Program-made: the position numbers and the translations under genes
Shown here: piece after piece, positions 94 to 299 of the stretch
Layout: each line of letters begins with the position of its first letter
Position numbering within the stretch: the first letter of the stretch is position 1
Notes under the pieces: generated by a model
What the model was told of the DNA's origin: nothing
The model's input: only the letters and a program-made list of their open reading frames with translations
The model's database searches: none
Source: Escherichia coli
GTDB taxonomy: Bacteria; Pseudomonadota; Gammaproteobacteria; Enterobacterales; Enterobacteriaceae
DNA length: 300 nucleotides
NCBI RefSeq assembly: GCF_003334355.1
Contig: NZ_QOWP01000117.1
Strand: one strand, 5' to 3'

Positions 94-120
94 AAAGATT
101 TCTACTCGGAACCAATCTTT
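94..120 (-). other. AU-rich hairpin (7-bp stem, 13-nt loop) immediately after the CCA-AUUUUAA of the tRNA 3'-end remnant
   Basis: In RNA sense: AAAGAUU-GGUUCCGAGUAGA-AAUCUUU. The arms are exact reverse complements (plus strand aaagatt 94-100, aatcttt 114-120). The large loop and AU-rich stem make stability marginal. Confidence 0.3.
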
Positions 121-143
121 AAAATTGGTGGCTCGTGCAGGAT
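119..143 (-). repeat. Truncated tRNA-Lys 3'-end remnant: 3' half of T-stem, 3' acceptor strand, CCA and 7-nt downstream flank, duplicated inside the spacer
   Basis: Plus strand 119-143 (ttaaaattggtggctcgtgcaggat) versus 217-241 (ttaaaactggtgggtcgtgcaggat): 25 nt with 2 mismatches, at 125 (t vs c) and 132 (c vs g). Similarity stops abruptly on both sides (144 g vs 242 t; 115-118 vs 213-216 unrelated). The 5' partner strands needed for acceptor and T stems are absent upstream, so this is not a functional tRNA. Confidence 0.75.
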
Positions 144-197
144 GACTCGCTTCGCTCGCCCTACGGGCCGTTGCTGGCGTAACGTTATCCTTCACGC

Positions 198-220
198 TTA
201 ACATCTGAGTTTGATGTTAA
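198..220 (-). other. AU-rich hairpin (8-bp perfect stem, 7-nt loop) beginning 3 nt after the CCA of the upstream tRNA-Lys
   Basis: In RNA sense: UUAACAUC-AAACUCA-GAUGUUAA. The arms are exact reverse complements (plus strand ttaacatc 198-205, gatgttaa 213-220). There is no GC-rich stem and no following U-tract, so it is not a canonical intrinsic terminator. Confidence 0.4.
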
Positions 221-223
221 AAC

Positions 224-299
224 TGGTGGGTCGTGCAGGATTCGAACCTGCGACCAATTGATTAAAAGTCAACTGCTCTACCAACTGAGCTAACGACCC
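224..299 (-). tRNA. lysY: tRNA-Lys (anticodon UUU), 76 nt including encoded 3' CCA
   Basis: Positions 224-299 are identical over all 76 nt to positions 2-77 (checked base by base), so the same cloverleaf and TTT anticodon apply. On the transcribed minus strand this is the upstream copy. The symbol lysY is tentative for the same reason as above; if the source is not E. coli K-12-like, the paralog name could differ. Confidence 0.96.

Follow-up and report, generated by a model that had tools for sequence, protein, structure and literature searches.

The lysY–lysZ interval and its direct repeat

We analyzed a stretch of 300 nucleotides of Escherichia coli DNA (hereafter, the window), which represents the lysY–lysZ interval on the minus strand and is 100% identical to ATCC 8739 and to many complete genomes. 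At least 80% of the window was covered by a place in 4272 of 5426 E. coli genomes. The window contains two tRNA-Lys(UUU) genes of identical sequence, both on the minus strand: the lysY equivalent at 224–299 (ARAGORN; Rfam tRNA model, 79.2 bits; ATCC 8739 RefSeq annotation) and the lysZ equivalent, which is the downstream tRNA, at 2–77 (ARAGORN, Rfam and RefSeq annotation). Because both genes are read from the minus strand, the tRNA at 224–299 is transcriptionally upstream, its 3' end lies at 224, and 217–223 is its 3' flank. The spacer between the two tRNAs covers 78–223 (146 nt).

An earlier note, made from these letters alone, had claimed that the tRNA-Lys 3' end and its flank occur a second time inside the spacer as a 25-nt duplication with two mismatches. 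A repeat search reproduced the duplication with the same coordinates, strand logic and mismatches. The direct repeat joins 119–143 and 217–241, with 23 of 25 positions identical (92%) and a start-to-start distance of 98 nt. When up to 3 mismatches were allowed, these two sites were the sole sites in the window, and dinucleotide shuffles of the window gave no match (0/200). The mismatches fall at 125, the first base after the CCA, and at 132, within the copy of the acceptor strand.

The template of the spacer copy is formed by the last 18 nt of lysY (224–241). The conserved repeat was limited to the corresponding 18 nt at 126–143, which were retained exactly (18/18) in K-12 and six other taxa, whereas the window copy matches at 17 of 18 positions owing to a derived G at 132. 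The flank part (119–125, AUUUUAA) matched at 6 of 7 positions in the window and at 5 of 7 in K-12. When extended over 12 nt, the flank agreed at 6 positions, and all short-form Lys elements ranged from 3 to 7 of 12; therefore, we regard the flank match as A/T-rich background or hairpin sequence. Thus, the 25-nt extent holds for its 18-nt tRNA part but not for the 7 nt of flank, and the conservation that the note had proposed to check is confirmed. As a side observation, the window copy, found in ATCC 8739/C-type strains, carries both a derived A at 180 and the derived G at 132, which are absent from K-12 and the six other taxa. The latter turns GACCC into GAGCC in the pseudo-acceptor strand and is the mismatch that the note had recorded.

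Anatomy of the spacer

We read positions 126–196 of the spacer (minus strand) as a short-form RtT-type repeat of approximately 71 nt, composed of a 5' arm, three hairpins and a 3' arm, on the basis of the Rfam model RF00391 and five homologues in K-12. Its structure was assessed with an alignment (A1) of 38 distinct short-form Lys and Arg elements among the matches listed. The 5' arm of the outer helix P1, CGUGAAGGAU (187–196, minus), complements AUCCUGCACG with one conserved A.G mismatch, as judged from the fold of the element alone and from A1 pair counts; the 3' arm of P1 lies at 134–143. Hairpin H1 (CGUUAC GCCA GCAACG; 169–184, minus) was defined by comparison of the copies and by A1 pair counts. 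In the window copy, the derived A at 180 breaks a G-C pair that is present in K-12 and other taxa. Hairpin H2 (GCCC-GUA-GGGC; CCCGNAGGG; 158–168, minus) has a 4-bp stem and a GNA triloop, was supported by folds and A1 pair counts, and varied only at the middle base of the triloop. Hairpin H3 (GC-GAA-GC; 149–155, minus), identified from compensatory changes at A1 columns 52–61, has a stem of 3–5 bp in other copies, with GNA, GNRA or UUCG loops. The element closes with the pseudo 3' end AUCCUGCACGAGCCACCA (126–143, minus), which equals tRNA-Lys positions 59–76 with CCA at 17 of 18 positions by repeat search and K-12 comparison. We also observed that H2 and H3 are both GNA triloops closed by C-G. 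The H3 sequence GCGAAGC is that of an unusually stable DNA mini-hairpin; therefore, a role of the H3 and H2 triloops in single-stranded DNA is conceivable.

Two further hairpins, found in both the MFE and centroid folds, occur at the two ends of this element. Hairpin H0 (UUAACAUC / 7-nt loop / GAUGUUAA; 198–220, minus) begins 4 nt past the lysY CCA and lies in the spacer outside the RtT core. It is present in the lysY–lysZ and lysW–valZ spacers, in C. koseri and in E. cloacae, with stem bases changed. The hairpin CCAAUUUU-A-AAGAUUGG (112–128, minus) pairs the pseudo-CCA with the spacer bases that follow it, and the 7 nt at 119–125 (minus) that had been taken for tRNA flank belong to it. This pairing is retained across 7 taxa, among them K-12, a divergent E. 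coli, C. koseri and Phytobacter; E. cloacae showed a two-sided change to CCACUUU/AAAGUGG, and strain RIT691 showed a change of C to U, giving U.G. The spacer is composite, and its description as mosaic was borne out.

Additional stretches were noted on the minus strand upstream of lysZ, where CCGAGUA (103–109) and AUCUUUCAGGUAACACCC (82–99) are conserved across genera. The 5' parts of the K-12 lysZ–lysQ and lysT–valT spacers (K-12 locus 1446–1480 and 631–665) contain GGTGG, which complements the CCACC of the pseudo 3' end, together with GGTAGAG or GGTAGTA, both similar to the D loop of tRNA-Lys. As sequence resemblances, these pieces hint that a tRNA-Lys copy may have been the ancestor of the units. 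Neither strand of the spacer showed a promoter-like site, and the sole terminator-like site of the spacer is the antisense of H1. Only spurious ORFs occur in the window. A 54-aa ATG ORF (40–204, minus) was considered and rejected as a gene because it runs into lysZ and its frame differs from that of tpr, the small protamine-like ORF of the tyrT repeat.

Identity of the element

RF00391 (RtT RNA) matched the window at 126–292 (minus) with 47.8 bits (E=1.6e-8), against a gathering score of 45, a score that takes in the upstream tRNA, to which the 5' third of the model was aligned. The spacer alone scored 34.4 bits (E=1.4e-5) over model positions 46–130 as a 5'-truncated match. The element by itself thus lies below the gathering score and falls short of the full model length, which we counted against its assignment to RtT; it lacks the 5' third of the RtT archetype. 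Matches to RF00391 were obtained in three spacers of the ATCC 8739 operon and in five of K-12.

All five tRNA-Lys genes of the K-12 lysT operon have a homologous element 3' of them, and each of these five copies ends in the exact ATCCTGCACGACCCACCA. They follow a common plan: an arm CGUG(A/U)AGGAU, H1 as ACGUUGC-loop-GCAACG, H2 as GCCC-GNA-GGGC, a variable H3, GAGUCAU and the last 18 nt of tRNA-Lys. The copies of the tyrT operon have the same core and end in the last 19 nt of tRNA-Tyr, with GGGGAAGGAU as the upstream arm. This shared plan indicates that the supposed remnant forms the 3' arm of a repeat unit whose body is the 73 bp between the repeats. In keeping with RtT, the element lies between lysY and lysZ, on the same strand and within a tRNA operon, and carries a cognate 3'-end copy of 18–19 nt with CCA (17/18 in the window and 18/18 in K-12).

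We conclude that a short-form RtT-type tRNA-linked repeat (126–196, minus) has the copy at 126–143 as its 3' arm, a reading to which we assign a probability of approximately 0.78. The Lys short-form element is related to RttR RNA and to the 178-bp repeats of the tyrT operon. The family itself is not new: it has been known from the tyrT operon for decades, is curated in Rfam and is partly annotated by NCBI as 'RtT sRNA'; in RefSeq, this name is given to the long forms alone, and the short forms are left without annotation. The 178-bp repeats/RtT of the E. coli tyrT–tyrV operon are attributed to Bosl and Kersten 1991, as cited in PMC3318445 and PMC4986893, and secondary citations of the same work ascribe to RtT RNA an effect on the amino-acid starvation response. 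According to PMC4986893, family members adjoining tRNA-Asn and tRNA-Lys in Pasteurellaceae were seen on Northern blots. The lysY–lysZ-type spacer is not discussed in PMC8082180 or PMC7049720. TRIP1 repeats were considered as relatives and rejected, as they are unrelated to tRNA.

Fold and covariation

The 5' arm is predicted from sequence to pair with the tRNA 3'-end copy, closing a junction of three small hairpins. On A1, the structure P1+H1+H2+H3 was 87% paired, compared with 29–46% when the 3' partners were slid by 1–3 columns. Two-sided changes in P1 followed tRNA identity, with one pair occurring as GC 16, UA 16 and AU 3 times in A1, and H3 showed compensatory changes at A1 columns 52–61 (GC 22, CG 8, AU 6, UA 1). 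The P1 of Arg short forms extended to as many as 14 positions and left ACCA free (A1). In Lys elements, P1 has 10 positions with the conserved A.G mismatch and 8 nt unpaired, which we counted against the RtT-type reading. H1 and H2 were nearly invariant in the sample; both were used as the search pattern, so that this invariance is partly due to ascertainment and tells little in either direction.

Folding of the window element alone recovered P1 and H2, with a z-score of -1.0 that we also counted against the assignment. In the whole-spacer MFE fold, the 5' arm prefers the downstream AAAUCUUUC to the pseudo 3' end, a further count against; here 93–101 competes with the pseudo 3' end for the 5' arm at 187–196. 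Therefore, P1 rests mainly on comparative evidence. Across seven taxa with a lysY–lysZ-type spacer, the element was almost invariant and its flanks drifted; the core hardly varied among E. coli, Citrobacter, Enterobacter and Phytobacter. For the long forms, an automated count of outer-helix pairing gave 7.7 of 12 with cognate and 6.5 of 12 with non-cognate arms, values that are weakly separated; several sequences were mis-registered, and we place no weight on this count.

Relatives at other tRNA genes

A scan of one genome per bacterial species with the core AACGGCCCGNAGGGCGAG returned at least 120 loci. Approximately half of these arose by chance in G+C-rich genomes and had no tRNA in their vicinity; the remaining loci listed belong to Enterobacterales, apart from a few in other Gammaproteobacteria (e.g., Marinobacterium). 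ARAGORN placed at least 85 elements 50–130 nt downstream of a same-strand tRNA, or farther in tandem arrays. Among the matches listed, the host tRNAs were Lys(UUU), Tyr(GUA), Arg(ACG), Arg(CCG), Pro(CGG), Pro(UGG) and Gln(UUG). When the final 22 nt were compared, tails agreed with the cognate tRNA at a mean of 16–19 positions and with non-cognate tRNAs at 8–14, and the cognate copy was perfect (18/18) in 64 of 77 distinct first copies, both among the matches listed.

Long forms have a further arm, whose AUGAGAA loop is conserved, as well as a T-loop-like GGUUCGA and one more hairpin. In most cases, they repeat the flank past the CCA too, at 8–12 of 12 nt, whole terminators included. Short forms, including that of the window, join the 5' arm directly to H1 and show a flank similarity of approximately 5 of 12. 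Arg short-form elements were present in 4180 of 5426 E. coli genomes with 1–5 copies each, without RefSeq annotation, and lie in the arg tRNA operon (e.g., at oriented positions 6693 and 6967 of one locus).

The operon of C. youngae has two tRNA-Lys acceptor variants, GGGTCGT..ACGACCC and GGGGCGT..ACGCCCC, and each is followed by a matching pseudo 3' end (elements at oriented positions 219 and 424). Within the element, the position that varies has no pairing partner, which points to local concerted evolution by recombination rather than to selection on RNA pairing.

Unit-sized differences between strains

Between E. coli strains, whole units have been lost or gained with precision at the repeat. 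ATCC 8739 is missing exactly one 98-nt unit in the lysW–valZ spacer (51 nt, versus 149 nt in K-12), together with the long RtT unit and duplicated terminator that K-12 has after lysQ. On comparison of the ATCC 8739 locus (3086–3136 and 2280–2500) with the K-12 locus (920–1068 and 1654–1873), the breakpoints lay in the tRNA 3'-end repeat. In E. coli strain 503025, the lysZ–lysQ spacer measures 33 nt versus 132 nt in K-12, which corresponds to the loss of one unit, and the array has contracted to five tRNAs (locus 869–1720). The long unit after the last tRNA-Lys of this strain is annotated as 'RtT sRNA'. The lysW unit was present in roughly half of the E. coli genomes (approximately 2658–3145 of 5426), and the long form after lysQ in 3241 of 5426.

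Alternative explanations

We can discard chance or an assembly artefact as the source of the similarity, given the shuffling result, the identity of the window in many complete genomes and the conservation of the element across genera; the assembly error that the earlier note had named as a possible refutation is thereby excluded. A passive scar, either a tRNA-Lys pseudogene in decay or a product left by unequal crossing-over as the array expanded, would have neither a selected structure nor a role; this reading, which the note had favored, is a more serious candidate that we nevertheless consider improbable. Long-form relatives do contain tRNA-like pieces (the GGTTCGA T-loop motif and an arm of 5 bp with a 7-nt loop), the 5' third of the Rfam RtT model aligns to a real tRNA, and GGTAGAG in the lysZ–lysQ and lysT–valT spacers equals the tRNA-Lys D loop. 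In addition, the unit-sized deletions and the different array sizes between strains show that unequal recombination is active. However, a core that is not tRNA is common to elements following six other tRNA species in many genera, it stays almost invariant while the neighboring spacer drifts, and P1 and H3 carry compensatory changes. Neither ARAGORN nor the Rfam tRNA model found a cloverleaf or the 5' two-thirds of a tRNA in 78–223; only the arms resemble tRNA-Lys. A purely decayed tRNA copy would account for the tRNA-like arms and for the GGTAGAG of two K-12 spacers, but it leaves the core common to seven tRNA species, with its RF00391 match, and the compensatory changes unexplained. That of unequal crossing-over was right insofar as the repeats do recombine (ATCC 8739 and 503025), but a passive scar does not fit the conserved structured core.

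The repeat could also have been left as an attL/attR-like footprint, or represent a miniature mobile element, non-autonomous and directed at the T loop or 3' end of tRNA genes; we judge this reading very unlikely. At tRNA att sites used by T-loop-targeting integrases, the identity block runs from the T loop through the CCA, and the block seen here has the same extent. The long forms duplicate the flank past the CCA (8–12 of 12 nt), presence/absence polymorphisms have exact boundaries, and one core occurs at seven tRNA types among the matches listed. Homologous recombination between the repeats explains these polymorphisms equally, and the units are only 71–178 nt long and often tandem. We agree with the note that the 73 bp between the repeats is too short for an integrative element. 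Its att-like idea found no support in phage, plasmid or viral collections, and the comparison that it had proposed for 144–216 yielded no genuine phage or plasmid homologue. In the phage collection, the matches were Salmonella chromosomal contigs filed as phage and one 7-kb unannotated record; those in the plasmid collection were mostly chromosome-sized or doubtful 'plasmid' records, all non-mobilizable; and a scan of viral contigs gave four matches by chance within coding sequence, plus one in host DNA flanking a Mu-like prophage. This last contig, the sole one with real RtT units, holds three tandem long-form Lys copies (12215–12712) in host DNA at the prophage edge, where the neighboring ORFs resemble MuA, MuB, Ner and a repressor. 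No integrase or mobility gene was found in the tRNA array or among its flanking genes (cpoB, pal, tolB, nadA, pnuC and zitB). Overall, the interpretation offered in the note is partly supported.

Proposed origin and fate of the element

According to Agrawal et al. 2014 (PMC4176162), the lysT operon is read as one transcript of ~1100 nt, its tRNAs are separated by RNase P from the 3' toward the 5' end, and 3' trailers as long as 150 nt remain on the lys pre-tRNAs until RNase II, PNPase and RNase T remove them. For lysT, that paper does not mention RtT and reports no Lys-derived RtT-like RNA species. Under the RtT-type reading, the element would be transcribed inside this ~1100-nt polycistronic precursor, where the 5' arm could pair with the copied T-stem/acceptor strand to form a four-way junction with the three small hairpins. 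Such a fold would mimic a tRNA acceptor/T-arm, with a conserved insert of ~43 nt (144–186) taking the place of the T loop. The claim that a CCA-ended acceptor-like sequence lies inside the primary transcript was borne out. Cleavage by RNase P at the 5' end of the next tRNA would leave the element as a structured 3' trailer of pre-tRNA-Lys, which is probably trimmed to about the pseudo-CCA and released as a by-product, by analogy with RttR. In K-12, the annotated 3' end of RttR falls exactly at the A of the pseudo-CCA, an annotation confined to the tyrT archetype. This provides a positive precedent for the remnant CCA as a processing site, drawn from the archetype and not from tRNA-Lys. The RNA might modulate precursor processing or the starvation response, and any function in trans would be an extrapolation. 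At the DNA level, the tRNA 3' end and its copy recombine as direct repeats; in this reading, recombination holds the copy to the sequence of its adjacent tRNA (concerted evolution) and yields precise loss, gain and tandem amplification of whole units.

A broader proposal is that RtT-type units constitute a family of tRNA-specific acceptor/T-arm mimics serving at least seven tRNA species, in which recombination keeps the copy cognate and selection re-fits the 5' arm; the units would then be either RNA decoys or sensors, or a miniature T-loop mobile element. We regard this proposal as speculative and rather doubtful. As decoys or sensors, the released RNAs could be directed at factors that recognize the 3' half of tRNAs, namely RNase P, 3' exonucleases, the CCA-adding enzyme or RelA/the ribosomal A site; as a mobile element, the conserved insert could be a miniature element that colonizes tRNA T loops. 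The observed cognate tracking, covariation and gain/loss polymorphisms form the basis for reading the units as a family of mimics and stop short of activity in trans or a mechanism of mobility.

The feature itself is ordinary, and the residual interest lies in its function and in how strictly both arms follow the neighboring tRNA. The short forms in the lysT and arg operons have remained without annotation, although most E. coli genomes contain them. The copied tRNA 3' end is built into the base-paired structure of the element and tracks its neighbor tRNA, even to an acceptor-stem variant within one operon. RtT repeats are the source of precise indels of unit size and of variation in the array size of a core tRNA operon, and natural strains that lack single units exist (ATCC 8739 and strain 503025).

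Comparison with known systems

The closest counterpart is the RtT/RttR of the tyrT operon. Both lie 3' of a tRNA on the same strand within a tRNA operon, share the core AACGUUGC..GCAACGGCCCGNAGGGCGAG..GAGUMAU, and carry an 18–19-nt cognate 3'-end copy with CCA that is paired to an upstream arm. Unlike the tyrT RtT, the Lys element lacks the AUGAGAA-loop arm, the GGUUCGA motif and the additional hairpin; it has the arms of tRNA-Lys instead of those of tRNA-Tyr and no RefSeq annotation, being known here from sequence. The attL/attR duplications at tRNA genes resemble it in a direct repeat that spans the tRNA from T loop to 3' end and in precise presence/absence between strains, whereas the Lys element has no integrase and no cargo, and a conserved structured RNA core lies between its repeats.

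Acceptor-T-arm minihelices are substrates of RNase P and the CCA-adding enzyme. The modeled arms of the Arg short forms, of up to 14 bp ending in ACCA, would approach minihelix geometry; in contrast, only 10 positions pair in the Lys copy, with one mismatch, and 8 nt are unpaired or taken up in the 112–128 hairpin. Finally, the 3'ETS of leuZ reportedly acts as an sRNA sponge (Lalaouna et al. 2015, as cited in PMC8082180). By analogy, the Lys element may likewise be a by-product of tRNA-precursor processing that could have a role of its own; unlike the leuZ 3'ETS, it is defined by acceptor/T-arm mimicry and not by complementarity to sRNAs.
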